Shown one piece after another: positions 2,061 through 55,233 of a DNA stretch of 64,000 bases. This DNA is from Clostridia bacterium. GTDB taxonomy: Bacteria > Bacillota > Clostridia > TANB77 > CAG-508. The DNA lies in contig JAFXOY010000160.1 of NCBI GenBank assembly GCA_017528375.1, forward strand, positions 37,398 to 101,397. The letters run 5' to 3'. Within the stretch, counting starts at the first letter, position 1. Each line of letters opens with the position of its first letter. The notes beneath the pieces are model-generated. The model was not told the origin of the DNA, made no database searches, and saw only the letters and a program-made list of their open reading frames with translations. The translations under genes were made by a program, and so were the position numbers.

Positions 2061-2093
2061 TAACACAAAATGAGTCCGTCCCCATATGTGTCA
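2061..2093. repeat. family A repeat, single 33-nt unit (reverse orientation)
   Basis: TAACACAAAATGAGTCCGTCCCCATATGTGTCA is the reverse complement of the family A consensus, with 2-3 mismatches. It creates the spurious N-terminal extension MKITQNESVPICV of ORF 2054..2338. Confidence 0.85.
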
Positions 2094-5365: not shown

Positions 5366-5444
5366 ATTCCTCTACCTCCTTTATATTTTATATGATATAG
5401 TATGCAAATTCGAAAAAATATGTTACAATAGTATGTAAATTAAA

Positions 5445-5582
5445 TGACACATTTGGGGACGGACTCATTTTGGGTCAAAAATGGCACAAAAAGGGACGGT
5501 CTTTAAATTTCACTCTAAATACTAAAAGTGTCCCCAAATGTGTCAAAAATGTCCCAAAATGAGTCCGTCCCCAAATGTGTCA
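5445..5582. repeat. family A composite element (inverted terminal units, about 138 nt)
   Basis: The left end TGACACATTTGGGGACGGACTCATTTTGGG and right end CCCAAAATGAGTCCGTCCCCAAATGTGTCA form a perfect 30-nt inverted repeat. Degenerate units (GGGACGGTCTT, GTCCCCAAATGTGTCA) lie between them. The element ends 22 nt before the U32 start codon. Confidence 0.9.
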
Positions 5583-5604
5583 CAATGGACAAAAGGAGCA
5601 AAAA

Positions 5605-8052
5605 ATGAATAAAATTGAACTATTGTCGCCTGTTGGTGATTTTGATTGTTTAAAGGCTGCTGTTCAATCAGGAGCAGATTGCGTGTATTTTGGTGGTGAA
5701 CTTTTCAACGCTAGGGCCTCTGCTAATAATTTCAGTGATGATGAATTAAAGCACGCTATTGAATATGCAAAAATTAGGAATGTTAAAACTAATTTAACTT
5801 TAAACATTTTAATTAAAAATGATGAATTTGAAAATGCTATTGAACTTGCAAAAAAAGCTTATGAATATGGCATAGATGCAATTATTGTTCAAGATTTAGG
5901 CTTAGCTAAAAAGCTTATCAAGCTTTTCCCTGATTTACCTATTCATGCCAGTACTCAAATGACTGTACATAATTTAGATGGTGTTTTAGAAGCTGAAAAA
6001 CTTGGATTTAAAAGAGTTGTTCTTTCAAGAGAATTATCTATTGAAGAAATTAAATATATTTGTGACAATTCGAATATTGAAATTGAAGTATTTGTTCATG
6101 GAGCTTTGTGTATGAGCTATTCTGGGCAATGTTTACTTTCAAGCATGATTGGTGCTCGTTCTGGTAATCGTGGAAAATGTGCTCAGCCTTGTAGATTACC
6201 ATATGAATTGATTCGTAAATCTATTGAATCAAGCGATAATAATGACCAATCTGTTACCCTTGACAAAGGACATTTACTAAGTCCGAAGGATTTATGTTCT
6301 TTAGACCTACTTCCTACTCTTGTTAACTTAGGAATCACATGTTTTAAAATTGAAGGAAGATTAAAAAATCCTGAATATGTGTCAACTGTAACCAGAATTT
6401 ATAGGAAATATATTGATTTAGCTCAATCTGGCGAACCTTACATCATAGAGGATAAAGATAGAAAAGATTTGTTACAAGTGTTTAACAGAGGTGGTTTCTC
6501 TTCAGGATATTTAGAAGGAAAACCAAACACAGAATTTGTGTCTAAAGCTAAACCCAATAATATGGGATTATTCCTAGGAACAGTACATAATTTTAACGAC
6601 AATAAAGGATACATTACTTTTAAATTGGAAGACGATATATCAATTGGTGATTCTGTTAGTCTTGAAAAAGAAAAAGGATTGTATACTATTTCTGAATTAA
6701 TGATTAATAATCAAAATGTTCCAAGTGCTAAAAAAGGCGATATTGTCAAGATTGGTAGAATTAAGGGACGTATTTCTGTTAATGATAAAATTTTTAAAAT
6801 AAGCTCTAAAGAATTAAACAATCTAACTGATGAATATTTAAAAGATGAAAAGAAAAAATCTAAATTGAATTGTAAAATCAGCATTCACAAAAATGAACCA
6901 ATAAGTATGAACATATATACTGATTCTTCTAATTCATCAGAATTATATAACAACATTAATTTTACAATAACATCAGACTTGATACCCGTTGATTCAATCA
7001 ACTCCCCTATCACATCAGAAAGAATTACAGATCAAATTAACAAATTAGGTGGAACACCATTTGAATTTAGAAAAATTAATGTTGATTTAGATGATAATTT
7101 ATATGTACCAAGTATTAGCAAATTAAATCAATTGCGTAGAGATTGCATAGCTAAGCTAGAAGAAATTTTATTTGATAGAATTCATCGAAAAACTAATGTT
7201 GATAGTACATCTTTTGGCAACCAATTAATTGAAAATAAAGAAACTCAAGCAAAAGATTTCGCTATTTTATTAAATAACCTAAATTTAACTTTTGATTATT
7301 CAAAAATTAGTAATATTGATAAAATATATATTCCATTGAAATATTTTGCCGACCAAAGTTATGTTGATAAAATTAGAGAAATAGCTGGAGTTGCTAGAAC
7401 ATTTATCTATATGCCATCAATTATGAAAGATTCAGTTGTTAATAATCTTAAATCACATATTGACAGTATTTTAAAAACATTTGATATTAAAGGATTTGTT
7501 ATTTCAAACATATCACATATTAATATTTTGAAAGATTATTTTAACAAATATGAAATAATAGCAAATTATACAATGAATGTTTACAATAATTATACTATTA
7601 CTGAATTAGAAAATTTAGGTATTAATACTATCACCCTATCTCCTGAATTAGATAAAGTAACACTAAACTCATTTAATTCTACTGTAAAAACAGAAGCTAT
7701 AATATATGGTAATTTGCCAGTTATGACTACAAATTACTGTCTTCTTTCAAGAAGTAACTATTGCTTAGATAAATGCAAAAATAATTGTGGAAATTCAAAT
7801 CAGGCTTATTATTTGAAAGACAGAATGAATATGGAATTCAAAGTATCTCCTGATTCTTTTACTAAAACTACTATAATTTATAATAGCAAAAAAACAAGTA
7901 TTAGTATTAATGAAATAAATACTGATTCTGTAAGATTAGATTTTAATGACGAAACTATGGATGAAATCATTTCTATTATAGATACATTTAAAAATGGTGG
8001 AATTCTTGAAGGCAAAAATTTTACTAACGGAAATTTTAAAAGAATCGTTTAA
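5605..8052 (+). CDS. U32-family peptidase (collagenase-like, long form)
   Basis: AAGGAG then ATG 5605 gives MNKIELLSPVGDFDCLKAAVQSGADCVYFGG..., with E..GALC.SYSGQC and CAQPCR motifs. The ORF-track start at 5575 lies inside the repeat and is rejected. Confidence 0.85.
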   Translation: MNKIELLSPVGDFDCLKAAVQSGADCVYFGGELFNARASANNFSDDELKHAIEYAKIRNVKTNLTLNILIKNDEFENAIELAKKAYEYGIDAIIVQDLGLAKKLIKLFPDLPIHASTQMTVHNLDGVLEAEKLGFKRVVLSRELSIEEIKYICDNSNIEIEVFVHGALCMSYSGQCLLSSMIGARSGNRGKCAQPCRLPYELIRKSIESSDNNDQSVTLDKGHLLSPKDLCSLDLLPTLVNLGITCFKIEGRLKNPEYVSTVTRIYRKYIDLAQSGEPYIIEDKDRKDLLQVFNRGGFSSGYLEGKPNTEFVSKAKPNNMGLFLGTVHNFNDNKGYITFKLEDDISIGDSVSLEKEKGLYTISELMINNQNVPSAKKGDIVKIGRIKGRISVNDKIFKISSKELNNLTDEYLKDEKKKSKLNCKISIHKNEPISMNIYTDSSNSSELYNNINFTITSDLIPVDSINSPITSERITDQINKLGGTPFEFRKINVDLDDNLYVPSISKLNQLRRDCIAKLEEILFDRIHRKTNVDSTSFGNQLIENKETQAKDFAILLNNLNLTFDYSKISNIDKIYIPLKYFADQSYVDKIREIAGVARTFIYMPSIMKDSVVNNLKSHIDSILKTFDIKGFVISNISHINILKDYFNKYEIIANYTMNVYNNYTITELENLGINTITLSPELDKVTLNSFNSTVKTEAIIYGNLPVMTTNYCLLSRSNYCLDKCKNNCGNSNQAYYLKDRMNMEFKVSPDSFTKTTIIYNSKKTSISINEINTDSVRLDFNDETMDEIISIIDTFKNGGILEGKNFTNGNFKRIV

Positions 8053-10309: not shown

Positions 10310-10326
10310 TTTACTTTTCCTTTCTG

Positions 10327-10395
10327 TGACACATTTGGGGACGGTCTTTTTTGTGTCATTTTTGAAACATTTTAAGACCGTCCAGGAATGTTTCA
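10327..10395. repeat. family A element (two units, inverted) inside the znu operon
   Basis: TGACACATTTGGGGACGGTCTTTTTTGTGTCA, then TTTT, then TGAAACATTTTAAGACCGTCCAGGAATGTTTCA. It fills the znuA-znuC spacer (znuA stop 10402, znuC start 10309). Confidence 0.9.
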
Positions 10396-10401
10396 AATAT
10401 G

Positions 10402-17450: not shown

Positions 17451-17518
17451 TAACATTTTATGACCGTCCCTTTTTGGGACATTTTTGTCCCATTTTGAGT
17501 CCGTCCCCAATTGTGTCA
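17451..17518. repeat. family A element (reverse-orientation units)
   Basis: TAACATTTTATGACCGTCCCTTTTTGGGACATTTTTGTCCCATTTTGAGTCCGTCCCCAATTGTGTCA. Confidence 0.85.
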
Positions 17519-17555
17519 AACAAAAAAAGAAGCTTTGTTTTAACAAAGCTTCTTT

Positions 17556-23403: not shown

Positions 23404-23418
23404 TAGCTTTATCCTTTT

Positions 23419-23488
23419 TGTCCCATTTGGGGACGGACTCATTTTGGGACATTTTTGACCCAAAACGAGTCCGTCCCCAAATGGGTCA
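23419..23488. repeat. family A inverted doublet (70 nt) between spoIIIAE and spoIIIAD
   Basis: TGTCCCATTTGGGGACGGACTCATTTTGGGACA, TTTT, TGACCCAAAACGAGTCCGTCCCCAAATGGGTCA. The two arms are near-perfect reverse complements. The last TCA (23486-23488) is the stop codon of the restored spoIIIAD frame. Confidence 0.9.
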
Positions 23489-23873
23489 TGGTAGAATTTT
23501 AGTTACAGTTTCTAGCAAGCTCGAAATTATCGGTATAGATACTGAAATAATCATTATTTTGCCTCCTATATCCATCTTGTTTGCTATTGCTGTTTCTCCG
23601 GCAATCTTTGCATATACTTACCCCAAATTCTGTTAATATCGCAATTCCTGTTATTTTTAGTAATAATGCTATATATGTTGTGTTTATAGCGGTTTTACTA
23701 GCCAAGTTATTTAATAGATTTACAACATCAAATAATTTGTCAAAGACTAGCATTAATATTAAAACACTTGCTGCTAGTGATGCATATAGAGCAAATTCTG
23801 GTTTATATTGCTTTAGTATTACAATCATCACTAATGAAATTAATCCCAAACCAATTACTTTTACAATTTCCAT
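23486..23873 (-). pseudogene. spoIIIAD: stage III sporulation protein AD, frame broken near 23600
   Basis: MEIVKVIGLGLISLVMIVILKQYKPEF...ITGIAILTEFGVSICKD, after which the zero frame reads CRRNSNSKQ... The +1 frame reads the canonical AGETAIANKMDIGGKIMIISVSIPIISSLLETVTKILP, ending at 23486. Confidence 0.8.
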
Positions 23874-23902: not shown

Positions 23903-23973
23903 TGCACACATTTTAAGACCGTCCCTTTTTGGGACATTTTTGACCCAAAATGAGTCCGTCCCCAAATGGGTCA
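23903..23973. repeat. family A element between spoIIIAD and spoIIIAC
   Basis: TGCACACATTTTAAGACCGTCCCTTTTTGGGACA, TTTT, TGACCCAAAATGAGTCCGTCCCCAAATGGGTCA. Confidence 0.9.
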
Positions 23974-23975
23974 AA

Positions 23976-35107: not shown

Positions 35108-35138
35108 TTTTTTAATCTTCCCTTCTATTTTTTACATT

Positions 35139-35234
35139 TGACACATTTGGGGACGGACTCATTTTGTGTCATTTTTGACACATTCCGGGACGGTCTTGTT
35201 CTTTATAAAAAACAAAGCTGTCCCCAAATGTGTC
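35139..35234. repeat. family A element
   Basis: TGACACATTTGGGGACGGACTCATTTTGTGTCA (self-complementary ends), TTTT, TGACACATTCCGGGACGGTCTT ... GTCCCCAAATGTGTC. Confidence 0.9.
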
Positions 35235-37861: not shown

Positions 37862-38710
37862 TTATAATCTGGTTAAATCTTTTGGCATATTTATTCCCTT
37901 TGCCATTACATCTATCTTTGAAACGTTCATAGCTGTAAGTCTTTCAATTTCCTTCTTTGATCTTATTTGAAAATCTTGTAAAATATCAACAATCTTTTTT
38001 CCGTAATTTACAATAACTTCCATGTAAATTTCAGTTCCCTGTTCTCCTGTATTTACTCTTGTTCTTGTGACTTTGTAAATTGATGGTTCTTTGTTGGCTA
38101 AATACTCAATTATCTGTTTAAACACATTGTCTGAAATAGTAAAATTACCCATATAACTAAATGTTGGTCTAATAATTGATTTTTCAGCCATATATGGAGC
38201 TTTGCCTCTTCCTGTTGATTTAAATATTTGCAACGGATCTAAAAGATATCCTGAAAACTCTTTCTTTATTTCAAACGTTGGAACTGGAATTACGTGTTTT
38301 CCTTCTGTAACACGAATTCTTCTCGCATTTTCCATTTCTTCCTCTGTAGCCACATCATTAATATAAACTGTTTTGCTTATTTCAGGCAAACCTAAATTAG
38401 CTGCAATTTTTGCAACCATTCCATCAGAAGTCCCTAAAATCAAAATTGCATCAGGATTAAATCTTACAAAAGCTTCCTGCATCTCTCTTTTTTCATTTTC
38501 TTCATAAAACAACGCATGTTTTACTGTTTCAACTTTTGTAGGAGCTTTTTTTGCTGATGTACCTGCCACAACCGCATTACCTTTTATAAGTAACCCATCA
38601 TCTATAATAAATTCTATGTTATTTTCTCCCGCAACCATCTGTGCTCTGTAACTTTTTCCTGTACCTGAAGGTCCAACAAAAGCACATACTCTAATATTGC
38701 TAAAATCCAT
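37862..38710 (-). CDS. P-loop (GPSGTGKS) N-terminal domain fused to an Asp23/Gls24-like C-terminal domain
   Basis: 282 aa. Walker A VGPSGTGKS at the N-terminus. The C-terminal about 110 aa (...ISDNVFKQIIEYLANKEPSIYKV..V......IYMEVIVNYG..I.....IQ..) resembles the alkaline-shock Asp23 family. Confidence 0.5.
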   Translation of the reverse strand: MDFSNIRVCAFVGPSGTGKSYRAQMVAGENNIEFIIDDGLLIKGNAVVAGTSAKKAPTKVETVKHALFYEENEKREMQEAFVRFNPDAILILGTSDGMVAKIAANLGLPEISKTVYINDVATEEEMENARRIRVTEGKHVIPVPTFEIKKEFSGYLLDPLQIFKSTGRGKAPYMAEKSIIRPTFSYMGNFTISDNVFKQIIEYLANKEPSIYKVTRTRVNTGEQGTEIYMEVIVNYGKKIVDILQDFQIRSKKEIERLTAMNVSKIDVMAKGINMPKDLTRL

Positions 38711-38786: not shown

Positions 38787-38863
38787 TGAAACATTTGACA
38801 CATTTGACACATTTGGGGACGGACTCATTTTGGGACATTTTTGACACATTTAGGGACGGTCTT
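38787..38863. repeat. family A cluster (forward-orientation units) 3' of the transposase gene
   Basis: TGAAACATTTGACACATT, TGACACATTTGGGGACGGACTCATTTTGGGACA, TTTT, TGACACATTTAGGGACGGTCTTC. It lies 29 nt beyond the stop at 38893. Confidence 0.9.
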
Positions 38864-38892
38864 CAGACTTTTTTAATTTTCTTAAAACTTGG

Positions 38893-39642
38893 TTAATCAA
38901 GATTATTCATAATTCTATACAAAGTTTTTCTGCTTATTCCAAGCAAATCAGCTATTTCATTATAGCTTAATTTTGATTTTTCTTTTAGTAAAATTGCTAA
39001 TTCTTTTACATGTTTTTTACTAATAATTTCTTTAATGTTTTCAATATTATTGACTTTTAAATAACTTTTAATTACTTTTTGTGGAGAAATTCCGCGAAAG
39101 CTGTAGAAATCCAAATTCTTTGACTTAATAAAAATATTTTTGAATTGTTCTAAATCTAGATTTAATAGTTCTAAAACTTTAGATTTTAAAATATAACTAT
39201 CTGATAAAAAAGCATTGTAACTTGAGTATTTATATTGTTCAGGCTTATCAACAATTTTAGCCTTCACTGGATTATTATGTACATAAATTATGCAAGAATA
39301 CAAGTAATGAAAATCAAATATTTGCTCACTTTTATATCTATCACGAAAAACATACCCTACTCTTTCTTTTTTATTGTTGTACCATTTGGCATAAGCTGTA
39401 TTAATTTTTTTCATAAACATAGATAATTCATCAACTTCCTTGTAATAGATAACCAAATGAACGTGATTATCCATGATACAATAAGAAATTAAATTAATAT
39501 TAAAATCACTTTTTTTCTTTTGCAATAAATCCCAGTATTTCTTTTTGCATGAATCATCTTGGAAAATATACTCTTTGTTTATGCCTTGAGCCATTATATG
39601 CACATAATTTGACACTAAATCTTTTCTAGCATGTCGTGGCAT
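38893..39642 (-). CDS. IS200-like HUH/Y1 tyrosine transposase of the REP-associated (RAYT/COG1943) type, with C-terminal HTH
   Basis: GGAGG + 8 nt then ATG 39642. MPRHARKDLVSNYVHIMAQGINKEYIF..., HUH motif in CIMDNHVHLVIY, Tyr region GYVFRDRYKSEQI, YVHNNPVKAKIV, C-terminal LSYNEIADLLGISRKTLYRI. 249 aa. Confidence 0.8.
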   Translation of the reverse strand: MPRHARKDLVSNYVHIMAQGINKEYIFQDDSCKKKYWDLLQKKKSDFNINLISYCIMDNHVHLVIYYKEVDELSMFMKKINTAYAKWYNNKKERVGYVFRDRYKSEQIFDFHYLYSCIIYVHNNPVKAKIVDKPEQYKYSSYNAFLSDSYILKSKVLELLNLDLEQFKNIFIKSKNLDFYSFRGISPQKVIKSYLKVNNIENIKEIISKKHVKELAILLKEKSKLSYNEIADLLGISRKTLYRIMNNLD

Positions 39643-39684
39643 ACTTTTCACCTCCTCTTTAATATATTTTTGATGAACATCCCT

Positions 39685-39712
39685 ATTATATAACGATTTT
39701 TACATTTTTCAA
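39685..39712 (-). promoter_or_regulatory. possible promoter of the transposase gene
   Basis: Minus strand TTGAAA (39712-39707), 16 nt, TATAAT (39690-39685). Confidence 0.45.
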
Positions 39713-39768
39713 GTAATATTTTTATTCTTCAATCATAAAAATATATTATCGTTTAATTGAAATCGTAC

Positions 39769-39873
39769 AAGACCGTCCCTTTTTGGGACATTTTTGACAC
39801 ATTTTGAGTCCGTCCCAAAATGTATCAAAAATGTCCCAAATTGAGTCCGTCCCCAAATGTGTCAAACGTTTCA
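39769..39873. repeat. family A cluster (three reverse-orientation units) 5' of the transposase gene
   Basis: AAGACCGTCCCTTTTTGGGACA, TTTT, TGACACATTTTGAGTCCGTCCCAAAATGTATCA, AAAA, TGTCCCAAATTGAGTCCGTCCCCAAATGTGTCA, AACGTTTCA. It ends 13 nt before the asd start. Confidence 0.9.
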
Positions 39874-39886
39874 AAAGGAGGTTTTT

Positions 39887-40898: not shown

Positions 40899-41014
40899 GA
40901 AACATCTTTGGACGGTCTTAATTTGTTTCAAAAATGGAAAAAATTAAGACCGTCCCCAAATGGGTCAAAAATGTCCCAAAATGAGTCCGTCCCCAATTGT
41001 GTCAAAACGTTTCA
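40899..41014. repeat. family A element filling the asd / 41012-gene spacer
   Basis: GAAACATCTTTGGACGGTCTTAATTTGTTTCA...AATTAAGACCGTCCCCAAATGGGTCA, AAAA, TGTCCCAAAATGAGTCCGTCCCCAATTGTGTCA, AAACGTTTCA. It starts 1 nt after the asd stop. Its last TCA is the stop codon of the convergent gene. Confidence 0.9.
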
Positions 41015-41713
41015 AATCATTGCAACAATGCAGAAAAATATTATCTTTGTTAAATAACCAAATAATAAATTAAAGTTATATAATTTAACTCCGTTCTCGT
41101 TTATTCTATCATAATTATTAACAATAATTTCAATATTTTCCTTGCTTATTAAATCTGATTTTGTTTCCATATATTCTTTTGCAACATATCTTGCCCTTGT
41201 CATTGCATCAGTTTCTAAATATGATCTAACTATGTATAAAATTGCTGACATAGTAACTAAAATAATTGCTAATATGTTTGGAAATGGTATTTTATTGAAA
41301 AACGTTAATGCAGTTGCTATTAGGAAATACAATAAATATATATTTGAAAAGATAAAATTAAACCATAATAGCCTTTTGTCTTGAATTGAATGTATGCATT
41401 CGTGAGCTATAGTTTGAATACGTGTGAAAGTCTCTTTTATGTTTGCTATTACTATACTATTCGTAGCAACTATATATAGACTTGTTTTGGAATCATCTGC
41501 TCCATGTTTTATTTTTACATTCTTATTTCCGAGCATGGATAATATATCTTTACAAACCTGCTCGTTATCTGGCAAAACATTGGTTATTTCGTTTAATTCT
41601 TTATCTTCCCCTAATTTTTTTATTGTCATAAGATTTTTCCAACTTACTTTAAACAATATTAAGAATAGTATAAAAACTATTATTGATAATATTAATATAA
41701 CAACTATATCCAT
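41012..41713 (-). CDS. membrane protein with HExxH motif (putative zinc metalloprotease)
   Basis: 233 aa with an N-terminal TM helix, AHECIHSIQD (HExxH), and three C-terminal TM helices. GGAGG SD. Confidence 0.5.
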   Translation of the reverse strand: MDIVVILILSIIVFILFLILFKVSWKNLMTIKKLGEDKELNEITNVLPDNEQVCKDILSMLGNKNVKIKHGADDSKTSLYIVATNSIVIANIKETFTRIQTIAHECIHSIQDKRLLWFNFIFSNIYLLYFLIATALTFFNKIPFPNILAIILVTMSAILYIVRSYLETDAMTRARYVAKEYMETKSDLISKENIEIIVNNYDRINENGVKLYNFNLLFGYLTKIIFFCIVAMI

Positions 41714-42107: not shown

Positions 42108-42132
42108 TTTCATTTCCTCCTATTTATAAATT

Positions 42133-42220
42133 TGAAACATTTTAAGACCGTCCCTAAATGTGTCATTTTTGACACAAAATAAGACCGTCCCCAAATGTGT
42201 CAAATGTGTCACAAATGTCA
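42133..42220. repeat. family A element
   Basis: TGAAACATTTTAAGACCGTCCCTAAATGTGTCA, TTTT, TGACACAAAATAAGACCGTCCCCAAATGTGTCA, AATGTGTCACAAATGTCA. Its final TCA (42218-42220) is the stop codon of the GT4 gene. Confidence 0.9.
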
Positions 42221-43720: not shown

Positions 43721-44650
43721 ATGCCAAGAAAAGCAAAAGATAAAGTTGAAGAAAACGAAAAAATTGATGAGAAAAAAACTACAACAAAAAAATCTACAGC
43801 TAAAAAATCAGCATCTACTAAGAAAACTACTGTTAAGAAGGCTGAACCAGCTGTAAAAAAAGCAGCTACTAAAAAAGAAACAAATACTACATCAAAGAAA
43901 TCTACTACATCTAAAAAAGCTACTACTTCCAAAACAGCTGCAAAAACAACAAAAACAACAAAAACAACTACAAAAAAAGCTGCAACTAAAAAGACTACTG
44001 CCCAAAAAAGTACAGCTAAAAAAGAAGAACCTACAAAGAAAACAACAACCAGAAGAAAAACCACCAAAAAAGCTACAGTTGTTGAAGAACCTCCTGTTCA
44101 AATTGTAGAGTACTATGATTTACCATATAAATATGGAAATACTGTAGTAAGACTTTTAGCACAAACGCCAAAAACCCTTTTTGTATACTGGGAAGTTTCT
44201 GAACAAGACATAGAAAACTTTAAAAAACTATATGGAGAAGATTTTTTCAGCAAAACAAAGCCTGTTTTAATTGTACATAATTTAACTCTTAATAAAATAA
44301 ATGAAATTGAAATTAATGATTTTGCCAATTGCTGGTATTTAAATACTGAAGATTCTGATTGCAAATTTGATATAGAATTAGCAAGAAAATTTATTGATAA
44401 TACAGCAAATGATGTAGATAACCCGGACAATTATCTTTATATTGCAAAATCAAATAATCTTCAATCTCCTAACAACCACATTCTATTTGAAAAAATTCAA
44501 GAATTTGTGGTTTTTAGAAATGCAAGTAATGATAATATAATTAAGAAAAATATAAAATCTTTTAAATTCTTAAAAGATATTTATAAGTTTTACAAAGATA
44601 TGTATGATGAAGATGTTTTAAATAATCCATCATCACAATTTAAATTTTAG
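43721..44650 (+). CDS. DUF4912-like protein with Lys/Thr/Ala-rich basic N-terminal region
   Basis: GGAGG then ATG 43721. About 125 aa of KKxTTxKK low complexity. Then YDLPYKYGNTVVRLLAQTPKTLFVYWEVS, typical of DUF4912, which I recall as a partner of GH57 genes. Confidence 0.6.
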   Translation: MPRKAKDKVEENEKIDEKKTTTKKSTAKKSASTKKTTVKKAEPAVKKAATKKETNTTSKKSTTSKKATTSKTAAKTTKTTKTTTKKAATKKTTAQKSTAKKEEPTKKTTTRRKTTKKATVVEEPPVQIVEYYDLPYKYGNTVVRLLAQTPKTLFVYWEVSEQDIENFKKLYGEDFFSKTKPVLIVHNLTLNKINEIEINDFANCWYLNTEDSDCKFDIELARKFIDNTANDVDNPDNYLYIAKSNNLQSPNNHILFEKIQEFVVFRNASNDNIIKKNIKSFKFLKDIYKFYKDMYDEDVLNNPSSQFKF

Positions 44651-46257: not shown

Positions 46258-46315
46258 TTTAATTTTTGGACGGTCATTTTTTAAATTTTTACAATTAAAG
46301 ACAGATAATAACATT

Positions 46316-46346
46316 AAAGAGGACGAATTAATCCGTCCTCTTTTTT
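46316..46346. terminator. bidirectional terminator between GH57 gene and ruvB
   Basis: AAAGAGGACG-aattaat-CCGTCCTCTTTTTT. Confidence 0.7.
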
Positions 46347-46358
46347 ATTTAATTCATA

Positions 46359-47386: not shown

Positions 47387-47519
47387 TGCACAGTTGGGGA
47401 CGCGTCCCGGCTGTGCATTTTGCACAGTCAGGGACAGGTCAACATCAATGTCCGTCCCTAAATGAGTCAAAAATGTCCCAAAATGAGTCCGTCCCCAAAT
47501 GTGTCACCAAAATATGTCA
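47387..47519. repeat. composite element: family B units fused to family A units
   Basis: TGCACAGTTGGGGACGCGTCCCGGCTGTGCA, TTT, TGCACAGTCAGGGACAGGTCAACATCAATGTCCGTCCCTAAATGAGTCA, AAAA, TGTCCCAAAATGAGTCCGTCCCCAAATGTGTCA, CCAAAATATGTCA. Its last TCA (47517-47519) is the ltaS stop codon. Confidence 0.9.
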
Positions 47520-54599: not shown

Positions 54600-54619
54600 A
54601 TTTTAATCTTCCTTTCTTT

Positions 54620-54652
54620 TGAAACATTTGGGGACGGACTCAAAATGTTTCA
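54620..54652. repeat. family A single unit (perfect 33-nt hairpin form) between rfbC and rfbB
   Basis: TGAAACATTTGGGGACGGACTCAAAATGTTTCA, with self-complementary ends TGAAACATTTTG / CAAAATGTTTCA. Confidence 0.9.
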
Positions 54653-54654
54653 AT

Positions 54655-55233
54655 TTATAAATTTTTAAATAAATCTGTTTCTTTTAATTCTTTTAATGAT
54701 GGCCAAAGTGCATCTTTTTCAGATGTAATTAAATCTTCCTTTTTCAAGTCTCCCATTGGCCAAACTATATTTACATCTGGATCATCAAATTTTAATCCAC
54801 CTTCTGCTGAATGATTGTAAACATCATCACATTTATATGCAAACTCTGCTTCATCAGATAAAACTAAAAATCCATGTGCAAAACCTTTTGGTATCATAAA
54901 CATTTTCTTATTTTCTTCTGTTAATACAACACCTTCCCATTTTCCATAAGTTTTACTTCCTGGTCTTAAGTCTACGGCCACATCAAATACTTCACCTTTA
55001 ATACATCTTACAAGCTTTGCTTGAGTATTTTCTTTTTGGAAATGTAAGCCTCTTAATACGCCTTTTTTTGATTTTGATTGATTATCTTGTACAAAATCAT
55101 AATTTAATCCTATTTCTTCGAAATCAGCTTTACTGTATGTTTCCATGAAGTATCCTCTGTTATCTCCAAAAACAGTTGGTTCTAATACGCATACTCCTTC
55201 AATTGAAGTATCTATTCTTTTGAATTTTCCCAT
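54655..55233 (-). CDS. rfbC: dTDP-4-dehydrorhamnose 3,5-epimerase
   Basis: VFGDNRGYFMETY...LRGLHFQ...QAKLVRCI.GEVFDVAVDLR... Confidence 0.95.
   Translation of the reverse strand: MGKFKRIDTSIEGVCVLEPTVFGDNRGYFMETYSKADFEEIGLNYDFVQDNQSKSKKGVLRGLHFQKENTQAKLVRCIKGEVFDVAVDLRPGSKTYGKWEGVVLTEENKKMFMIPKGFAHGFLVLSDEAEFAYKCDDVYNHSAEGGLKFDDPDVNIVWPMGDLKKEDLITSEKDALWPSLKELKETDLFKNL

Follow-up and report, generated by a model that had tools for sequence, protein, structure and literature searches.

A Y1 transposase gene and an amplified core-and-arm repeat family that probably form a REPtron-like 'TIRtron' in AT-rich Clostridia

TIRYTs are Y1 transposases whose genes lie between long inverted repeats and form 'TIRtrons' with them (Di Nocera et al. 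2013; PMC3733652). Many TIRtron repeats share the motif GGGGWSAS, and some are moderately abundant families found in dimers or clusters (PMC3733652). Quentin et al. (2018; PMC6006769) equated the TIRYTs with TnpA-Y1 subclass 2.1, whose C-terminal domain is Bac_DnaA_C, HTH_23 or HTH_28, and found no structure resembling the repetitive extragenic palindromes (REPs) near subclass 2.1 genes. The same branch is the RAYT Group 1 of Bertels et al. (2017; PMC5581495), where it was recorded in Clostridia already and where the flanking 16-mers reached only about 12 occurrences per replicon. In the two surveys, Group 1/subclass 2.1 was weakly or not associated with repeats and had no secondary structure nearby. 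It is the largest and least understood RAYT group, no other group of domesticated Y1 transposases is as widespread, and it is without a known substrate. Here we analysed a stretch of 64,000 nucleotides of a Clostridia bacterium (assembly GCA_017528375.1, contig JAFXOY010000160.1, positions 37,398 to 101,397; 29% G+C), in the following called the window. A preliminary description, made from the letters alone, had noted at 38787-39873 a RAYT-type gene bracketed by inverted clusters of the dominant intergenic repeat and had called the arrangement REPtron-like. Our analysis suggests, with a probability of about 80%, that the gene codes for a domesticated class-2 Y1 transposase of the TIRYT/Group 1/subclass 2.1 branch which maintains the repeat family, the whole being a REPtron-like 'TIRtron'.

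The Y1 gene occupies positions 38893-39642 on the minus strand and codes for a protein of 249 amino acids that starts with MPRHARK. The ATG start was favoured over a GTG at 39651 because a GGAGG box lies 8 nt ahead of the ATG. In the protein, a helical linker joins the Y1 domain at the N-terminus to a C-terminal helix-turn-helix (HTH) at about residues 209-245. Membership of the HUH/Y1 family and the C-terminal HTH, both proposed beforehand, were borne out by the Pfam search: Y1_Tnp (PF01797) matched residues 13-108 with 46.8 bits at a cut-off of 23, and HTH_23 matched residues 215-246 with 26.3 bits at a cut-off of 24.6. Several HTH families match in this region, HTH_28 with 20.8 bits, and HTH_23 is the one above its cut-off. 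The HUH motif is H60-V-H62 and the catalytic tyrosine is Y120 within YVHNNP; in a profile search Y120 was aligned to the tyrosine of YIYINP in the E. coli TnpA_REP (4ER8), and the HUH motifs were aligned too. FRDRYK, which had also been counted to the tyrosine region, is a conserved motif, yet the catalytic tyrosine sits in YVHNNP only. YVHNNP agrees with Y---NP, the class-2 tyrosine signature (PMC6006769), and is followed downstream by the Ser motif YKYSSY. The residues H60, H62, R100, R102, Y120, H122, N124, P125, Y137 and S140 were invariant when 39 homologues, with identities as low as 37%, were aligned. Judged by this alignment, the Y1 gene retains all catalytic residues.

The fold was compared with known structures. 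A single-sequence search of the PDB returned no Y1 structure and a profile was required, for which 4ER8 was the top hit (E=1.1e-3), followed by the ISDra2 TnpA (0.11). The AlphaFold model (pLDDT 87.5, pTM 0.79) had a three-helix HTH bundle at residues 209-245. Foldseek gave 4ER8 as the best match of the model (E=2.2e-6, TM 0.69 on the target) and then the IS608, ISDra2 and IS200 transposases; the first 26 PDB fold matches were all Y1 transposases.

The placement of the protein within the Y1 transposases was tested with models and reference sequences. The top NCBIfam model was REP_Tyr_transpos (NF047646) with 60.1 bits, which does not reach its curated equivalog cut-off of 80, whereas the IS200 model (NF033573) gave 20 bits at a cut-off of 55. 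REP_Tyr_transpos was matched by 39/39 family members (best E-value 5.5e-21). The TIRYT and RAYT reference sequences were rebuilt from Additional file 5 of Di Nocera et al. With phmmer, the window protein scored 47-80 bits against HTH-type TIRYTs (pca 3049, 80; tkm 1558, 75; dau 2153, 73; sml 1152 and sml 4509, 62 each; gbm 2474 and hch 1378, within 62-80), whereas of the canonical RAYTs pfs 3939 gave 17 bits and eco b228 no match. A family profile gave 75-120 bits for the listed TIRYTs, compared to 22 for eco b228 of E. coli. From the TIRYT-type scores, the C-terminal HTH and the long inverted repeats around the gene, the protein is by sequence a member of the TIRYT/RAYT Group 1/TnpA-Y1 subclass 2.1 branch. 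The name REPtron-like is therefore apt for the RAYT side and for the layout of gene and repeats, while the exact class is this branch and not the canonical RAYTs. The preliminary description also knew of no characterised REP/RAYT system in low-GC Firmicutes. This has to be narrowed to a characterised, amplified repeat family, as the class was already found in Clostridia (PMC5581495) and with long inverted repeats (PMC3733652, PMC6006769).

The features of the described TIRYTs recur in the window. The protein has the N-terminal MPR..R, the HUH, Y---NP and Ser motifs and an HTH_23-type C-terminus, the copy number is probably low, the terminal inverted repeat (TIR) is long with a GGGG-rich motif, and the repeats are also found elsewhere in the genome as dimers and clusters. 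The conserved repeat core GGGGACGG fits the published consensus GGGGWSAS at 7/8 positions. The window system differs in that its TIR is an array of 36-37-nt units with a fixed core and covarying arms, and in its REP-like density of about 0.4 units per kb, compared to about 12 genome-wide copies of the flanking 16-mers in Group 1 (PMC5581495).

The whole 'TIRtron' spans 38794-39875 and includes the gene and both flanks. Its 69-nt terminal inverted repeat (38794-38862 and 39807-39875) is 91% complementary and encloses the Y1 gene, which agrees with the inverted repeat clusters seen beforehand. The array on the stop-codon side (38787-38863, plus strand) starts with extra arm copies at 38787-38804, continues with a full unit at 38805-38837 with the core GGGGACGGACTC and ends with a truncated terminal unit at 38842-38863 with the core GGGACGGTCTT, which faces the gene. 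The array on the start-codon side (39767-39875, minus strand) has the opposite orientation. It consists of a truncated terminal unit at 39767-39787 (AAGACCGTCCC), again facing the gene, and the full units 39794-39828 and 39831-39865, all on the minus strand; its middle unit lies within a 36-nt nested hairpin. The distances of 29 nt from the stop codon to the one array and of 126 nt from the other array to the start codon were found as described before. The count of two plus three units and their coordinates also held, with the correction that one unit on each side is a truncated terminal unit. A promoter-like site of the Y1 gene, TTGAAA-16-TATAAT (39685-39712, minus strand, 11/12 positions), is located inside the cassette, and the stretch ACTTGAAAAA...TATAAT recurs at the Y1 loci of relatives.

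The repeat unit is the core GGGGACGG(A/T)CT between 7-nt arms, with a period of 36-37 nt. An example is TGACACA-ttt-GGGGACGGACTC-atttt-GKGWCA, given as 5' arm, core and 3' arm. The units are present in three forms, as singles, as head-to-tail arrays (37-nt period, 36 nt in some relatives) and as inverted doublets. The arrays are polar: their innermost unit carries the core variant GGGACGGTCTT and is without a 3' arm. The 33-mer of the preliminary description had 10 matches in the window at up to 3 mismatches, compared to 0 in 100 shuffles. A unit profile found 28 matches (E<0.05) in 14 clusters, 12 of them besides the Y1 flanks, matching the recurrence at 12 or more intergenic sites that had been described. 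The heptamer GGGACGG/CCGTCCC was counted 27 times on both strands, with 0.53 expected, and in the window's clade GGGACGG has 0.35-0.7 copies per kb. All 14 clusters lie in the approximately 11% of the window that is non-coding (outside long open reading frames, ORFs); in the few cases of nominal overlap, the ORF is a maximal one and the overlapping part is its 5' extension. These counts show that the units were multiplied in this lineage to dense intergenic singles, arrays and REPIN-like doublets. The unit is unlike the GTAG-type REPs, as had been stated, since it contains no GTAG and has its conserved part between variable arms.

A scan of the whole window at the Rfam gathering thresholds gave no family, so the units are not a known RNA. 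They are found in both orientations relative to the surrounding minus-strand genes, which favours an element acting at the DNA level over one acting at the RNA level. Other repeat classes were considered and rejected. A CRISPR-like array does not fit because the units abut without spacers. The CGTC-tagged REPs were rejected, although the core has CGTC on its other strand, because the stems and loops differ and no transposase is present there; these REPs have 8-9-bp stems and 4-5-nt loops and are without an associated transposase (PMC3733652).

Pairing of the arms was analysed in 128 non-redundant units of 12 lineages, which included the window, six related lineages from metagenomes and metagenome-assembled genomes (MAGs) and four Clostridia MAGs of higher GC content. 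Across the 12 lineages the core GGACGG(A/T)C was constant and the arms were lineage-specific, with the pairs GACACA/TGTGTC, GAAACA/TGTTTC, GAGAC/GTCTC, AGGGA/TCCCT, ATTTTC/GAAAAT and GGAACG/CGTTCC. MAFFT aligned 65 units without gaps, in spite of a one-base shift of the 3' arm between the lineages with 36-nt and 37-nt periods. Because this alignment hid the shift, a register-free script was used. At least 6 consecutive Watson-Crick pairs round the core were found in 65% of the 128 units, compared to 3.8% when the 3' arm was shuffled and 19% when it was replaced by that of another lineage. For the 30 units in one register, which were picked solely by invariant frame positions, the paired cells amounted to 94.3% (84.9% in shuffles), the double-change cells to 18 (7.0) and the covariation score to 0.218 (0.063). 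None of the 500 shuffles matched the pairing, double-change or covariation values and all slid controls were far lower. Judged by this covariation, the pairing arms are shown to be under selection. The inverted doublets at 5442-5585, 23415-23492, 10325-10398 and 40900-41008 folded with z values from -5 to -13. The hairpin ascribed to the unit beforehand is thus seen in the unit family and in the inverted doublets, but not in the commonest window unit on its own.

The link between the gene and the repeats had been claimed from adjacency only. In every lineage checked, with homologues at the same locus as well as with 42-44% identical homologues, the Y1 gene lies between inverted units that have the arms of that lineage. 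The inverted layout, in which each flank turns a terminal TCTT-type unit towards the gene, was found again in every lineage examined. The link goes therefore far beyond adjacency. In two lineages the units are found only at the gene flanks within 8.7 kb, as AGACA-ta-GGGACGGAG-ctt-TTGTCT in L130 and as TGAGACA-ataa-GGGGACGGAGC-ttttt-TGTCTCA in L135. The terminal inverted repeats at these genes are 52 and 31 nt long in L130 and 36 nt in L135. Ubiquitous repeats could in principle have come to flank an unrelated Y1 gene by chance, given that 14 clusters in 64 kb place units in about 1/5 of the intergenic regions. Such chance neighbours would not repeat the inverted layout with its gene-facing terminal unit in every lineage examined, nor explain distant homologues at other loci with units at the gene flanks only, and we regard this explanation as practically negligible.

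A blind scan for the DNA pattern core-N25-29-core was run on 185,579 species genomes. Among the matches listed, 89 of 109 stretches came from DNA of at least 42% G+C and were nearly all due to chance; the matches listed included four low-GC MAGs, four higher-GC Clostridia MAGs and Fibrobacterota loci. At two of the listed Fibrobacterota MAG loci a Y1 homologue, 32% identical over the catalytic domain, lies beside the motif. The 328-aa Y1 gene of the Fibrobacterota locus L049, which was found only via the blind scan, lies between inverted GGGGACGGACT motifs. Since core-flanked Y1 homologues are present in Clostridia and in Fibrobacterota, the core is, by this sequence comparison, tied to the protein branch across phyla, whereas its dense amplification is lineage-specific, being found in the window's clade and in some higher-GC Clostridia MAGs such as RUG199. 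A scan of the JGI metagenomes with a window-specific 23-mer yielded only 4 short contigs.

The scan also revealed other arrangements of the core. Four Clostridia MAGs of 55-62% G+C, RUG199 (L117), RUG363 (L034), RGIG4436 (L027) and CAMHSI01 (L085), have the core GGGACGGTCTTTTT. Their arms are GC-richer (GGAACG/CGTTCC, GAAACG/CGTTTC), and 13 units were counted in 8 kb of RUG199. The 8-kb pieces of these four MAGs contain no Y1 gene. Upstream of the Fibrobacterota Y1 homologue, the Chitinispirillaceae MAGs (L056 at 7200-7320, L054 and L125) have an 18-nt tandem repeat, GGGACGGACTACATAGAT, in four copies, where the core is present in a different arrangement and has no obvious arms. In Betaproteobacteria MAG252 (L052, L026) and in a proteobacterial MAG (L040) we found REP-like palindromes made from the core decamer, such as GGGACGGTCTGAAGACCGTCCCCTACC, which ends in CTAC (GTAG on the other strand), and GGGGACGGACTTAAGTCTGTCCCC. 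These proteobacterial palindromes may be a coincidence or may point to a link between the GTAG-type REPs and the core.

The close relatives of the window are metagenome contigs, from ruminant gut according to the record names, and MAGs labelled Clostridia or Lachnospiraceae. The exact protein is encoded on 11 contigs from different samples, in 11/11 cases in one context with the gene order asd <- Y1 -> Asp23-like ATPase -> cmk/plsC -> rpsA -> typA. In six further lineages the same slot is filled by a Y1 protein of 62-74% identity, with flanking DNA that is 78-85% identical. The Y1 protein diverges faster than most of its neighbours (62-74% compared to 78-96% identity). Distant homologues also have one fixed locus each, the 42% identical P0080 between the genes for a U32 peptidase and rimP-nusA and the 44% identical P0120 between recD2 and a comF-like gene. 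The 64-kb window has one copy of the Y1 gene, and no tnpB was found among its ORFs. The 11 contigs, the syntenic slots and the window indicate that the Y1 gene is, as judged from these comparisons, a single-locus gene that is vertically inherited.

These results bear on the possibility that the 1.1-kb unit is an ordinary multi-copy autonomous insertion sequence (IS) of the IS200/IS605 type and the short repeats its MITE-like debris. Such an element would account for the Pfam Y1_Tnp domain, for the inverted repeats that bound the gene, for gene-less miniatures like 5445-5582, for a cassette that differs between two near-identical strains (see below) and for the many homologues whose contigs are only about 0.9-1 kb long and stop at the repeats. 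It would not account for the one context in 11/11 contigs, the slot that is syntenic across species and the one copy per 64 kb. The low score with the NCBIfam IS200 model, the missing tnpB and the grouping with the TIRYTs argue in the same direction, and the ends of IS200/IS605 elements are same-strand subterminal hairpins, not terminal inverted repeats (PMC6006769). An ordinary IS is thus very improbable. The homologues P0002, P0004-P0006, P0016 and P0017 and the loci L008 and L011 stand alone on 0.9-1.0-kb contigs bounded by the flanking repeats; evidently the repeats or the allelic variation of the cassette break the metagenome assemblies at the Y1 locus.

Two genes near the Y1 gene were also compared. 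The protein of 282 amino acids encoded beside it at 37862-38710 combines a P-loop at the N-terminus with an Asp23-like domain at the C-terminus. It is 90-94% conserved across species, and in the clade its gene is always directly downstream of the Y1 cassette. The predicted membrane protein of 233 amino acids at 41012-41713 has no Pfam match and is 59-64% identical across species, compared to 78-96% for most neighbours.

We then compared the window with closely related strains. Strain L012 is 99-100% identical over 13 kb, except for a DUF4912 stretch and three differences that are associated with the repeats. Two of these are exact 37-nt indels of one unit, in the clusters 42132-42203 and 40934-41005. 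The third is the segment from about 38803 to 39830 with the Y1 gene and the inner units, which is 51-81% identical in DNA and 68% in protein, whereas all proteins neighbouring Y1 are 99-100% identical. The divergence starts right after GGGGACGG and stops right before CCGTCCCC, which are the outermost cores. The Y1 cassette was therefore exchanged once, with the breakpoints at the outermost cores. A search for the donor of the L012 allele found no protein of more than 70% identity. In a second species, four strains of 99.3-99.7% identity differ by a 36-nt indel of one unit, the sole indel of at least 8 nt. A second, smaller divergent patch of L012, unrelated to the repeats, covers the DUF4912 gene at 43881-44480, where the identity to the window is 92-96%.

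The strain differences might be ordinary replication slippage and homologous recombination, and would then be uninformative on catalysis by Y1. All junctions are within 10-12 nt of identity that neighbouring units have in common (TTGGGGACGG, GGGACGGTCTTA), tandem arrays are classic slippage substrates, and if a divergent donor was involved, crossovers would find their best-conserved stretches in the repeats. Recombination is less easily reconciled with the breakpoints of the cassette exchange, which are symmetric and exactly at the outermost inverted cores with 99-100% identity directly outside. A donor with flanks of about 80% identity would usually leave some divergent flank, and no donor allele closer than 70% was found. 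We give this explanation of the strain differences a chance only slightly below even.

Several results weigh against repeats that are maintained by Y1. The one-unit indels and the breakpoints at the cores are equally expected from slippage or recombination. No repeat differences were found among eight strains of 99.8-100% identity; an apparent break near 46270-46350 was rejected, as it is an N run in the scaffold plus an AT-rich tandem repeat and not a unit. Polymorphism of the repeat loci between relatives was seen as indels in unit number, but in none of the strain comparisons as a unit inserted into a previously empty site. In several species clusters lie at orthologous intergenic sites, as would be expected of stable elements of some age, or of a host function, no less than of elements that still move. 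The commonest window unit (TGACACA...TGGGACA) has mismatched arms and does not fold alone; its arms pair with inverted neighbours, for instance in the nested hairpin 39771-39851. In arrays the arms pair either across the core or across the 4-5-nt spacer between units, the 3' arm with the next 5' arm. To this adds the REP_Tyr_transpos score below the equivalog cut-off, and binding of Y1 to the repeats and its catalysis on them are what we infer from the sequences.

The repeats could then be kept mainly for a host function, such as transcription punctuation, mRNA 3'-end protection, sites for nucleoid or HTH proteins, or recombination or replication signals, with Y1 as a domesticated DNA-binding or processing factor and with units that are no longer selfishly mobile. 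The orthologous intergenic sites, where flanking genes are only about 80% identical, and the position of clusters in short gaps between co-directional genes are consistent with this, as are the fixation of the gene at one locus across the genus-level clade and the roles of this kind that REPs have elsewhere (PMC3733652). A strand-specific RNA role is contradicted by the presence of both unit orientations relative to the flanking minus-strand genes, and a terminator role was rejected since only one terminator-like match falls on a unit. The unit number varies between strains of 99% identity, and the invariance of the HUH and Tyr residues suggests that nicking, beyond binding, is under selection. 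Taken together, we consider a mainly host-serving repeat less likely than not; a host function for the repeats as such is compatible with domestication.

If the domesticated transposase maintains its repeats, the process could be as follows. Where the DNA is single-stranded, as at the replication fork, the arms would pair and present the core. The Y1 domain would recognise the core and nick beside it, and the breakpoints between the strains would fit a cut immediately 3' of GGGGACGG. A 5'-phosphotyrosyl link would be formed via Tyr120, and the strand could be rejoined to another core, by which units or doublets would be added, removed or moved. The C-terminal HTH may tether the enzyme to duplex repeats or regulate its own promoter (TTGAAA-16-TATAAT). 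Such a nick-and-rejoin scheme would parallel the RAYT/REPIN proposals as well as the established chemistry of IS608 and the established cleavage of REPs by TnpA_REP (PMC6006769, PMC3479197). A bolder proposal is that the Group 1 RAYTs use a recognition mode of their own, in which pairing arms specific to each lineage would present a near-universal GGGGACGG and the cut would fall directly 3' of this core. Core-core rejoining would then explain the change of arrays by one period, the spread of doublets and the exchange of the cassette. The core is common to Clostridia of 25-62% GC and Fibrobacterota. As a whole we regard this proposal as rather speculative and, for the time being, improbable. 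If it were true, Y1 would be a self-replaceable domesticated transposase whose gene is exchanged as a cassette between strains.

The system was also compared with other known Y1 and HUH systems. As in the proteobacterial REPtrons and REPINs of E. coli and Pseudomonas, the Y1 gene is apparently single-copy, is inherited vertically and has inverted copies of the dominant repeat on both sides. Inverted doublets fold into long hairpins here too, and the closest solved structure to the window protein is 4ER8. Unlike in canonical REPs, there is no GTAG in the unit, and it is the core enclosed by the arms that is conserved instead of the stem. Units often stand head to tail in arrays, and the protein differs by its extra HTH domain and its weak match to the canonical RAYTs. 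With IS200/IS605 elements (IS608, ISDra2, PATE/MITE) the window system has in common the HUH/Y1 fold and motifs, hairpin ends and short non-autonomous derivatives. It differs from them by a gene that is not multi-copy, is without tnpB, has inverted ends and is fixed at its locus across species, and by a protein that fits the IS200 model worse than the REP-type model. The origins of rolling-circle Rep proteins (HUH), where the loop of a variable stem contains a conserved nick site, are like the single units in layout only, as an invariant sequence between variable paired arms; the window protein is an HUH enzyme of the Y1 transposase type and not a Rep.

The class itself and its presence in Clostridia are already known. 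In the literature that could be searched, an amplified Group 1 RAYT repeat family in Firmicutes was not described. To our knowledge, the following are new: in Firmicutes, a repeat family that is amplified to REP density and linked to a Group 1 RAYT, the build of the unit, whose arms covary round a fixed core in arrays of 36-37-nt period, the conservation of the core from AT-rich Clostridia to Fibrobacterota, and the natural swap of a Y1 cassette. The window lineage provides a candidate substrate for Group 1, namely the conserved core between covarying arms. The natural breakpoints suggest a putative cleavage position, and among natural strains there are pairs that differ in single units and in the whole gene cassette. 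REP-like amplification extends beyond Proteobacteria and Cyanobacteria and is also found in AT-rich Clostridia of gut and rumen.

The clusters away from the Y1 gene represent all three forms of the unit. The gene-less, REPIN-like inverted doublet at 5445-5582, with outer ACTC-type and inner TCTT-type terminal units, is a miniature of the Y1 flanks, and its DNA forms a single long hairpin (-47.9 kcal/mol, z -13.5). A second inverted doublet, of TCTT-type units, is at 10327-10396 (-16.2 kcal/mol, z -5.4). At 23419-23488 two head-to-head units form a long hairpin (-32.7 kcal/mol, z -9.3, folded as 23415-23492), and the arms pair perfectly in each unit (TGTCCCA/TGGGACA and TGACCCA/TGGGTCA). Tandem units are found at 23906-23974 (two, minus strand), at 35138-35234 (two with a degenerate inverted partner) and at 42132-42215 (two with extra arms, minus strand), and the cluster 40899-41005 has three units, one of them inverted. 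The two latter clusters are those where one 37-nt unit is missing in strain L012. A unit with a degenerate terminal unit is located at 17453-17519 and a unit with a degenerate unit at 47450-47506, both on the minus strand. Single units are present at 2061-2093 (minus strand, found with the unit profile) and at 54619-54653 (plus strand), where a 10-11-bp stem has the core in its loop (-8.9 kcal/mol, z -5.0, folded as 54617-54655).

Two minor observations were made on sequences in and near the repeats. The arm with its spacer, for example TTTGACACA at 38840-38848, agrees at 8/9 positions with TT[AT]TNCACA, the DnaA-box consensus as quoted in PMC6006769, and some subclass 2.1 proteins have a DnaA_C-like HTH. 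The likeness is probably a coincidence because the arms differ in sister lineages. The spacer between ruvB and the GH57 gene (46258-46352) contains a hairpin that resembles a terminator, GAGGACGGATTAATTCGTCCTC, as well as a degenerate core, ATGACCGTCC. In the same spacer AAATTTAAAAA is repeated in tandem, and its copy number varies among the strains L002 and L004 and the window.

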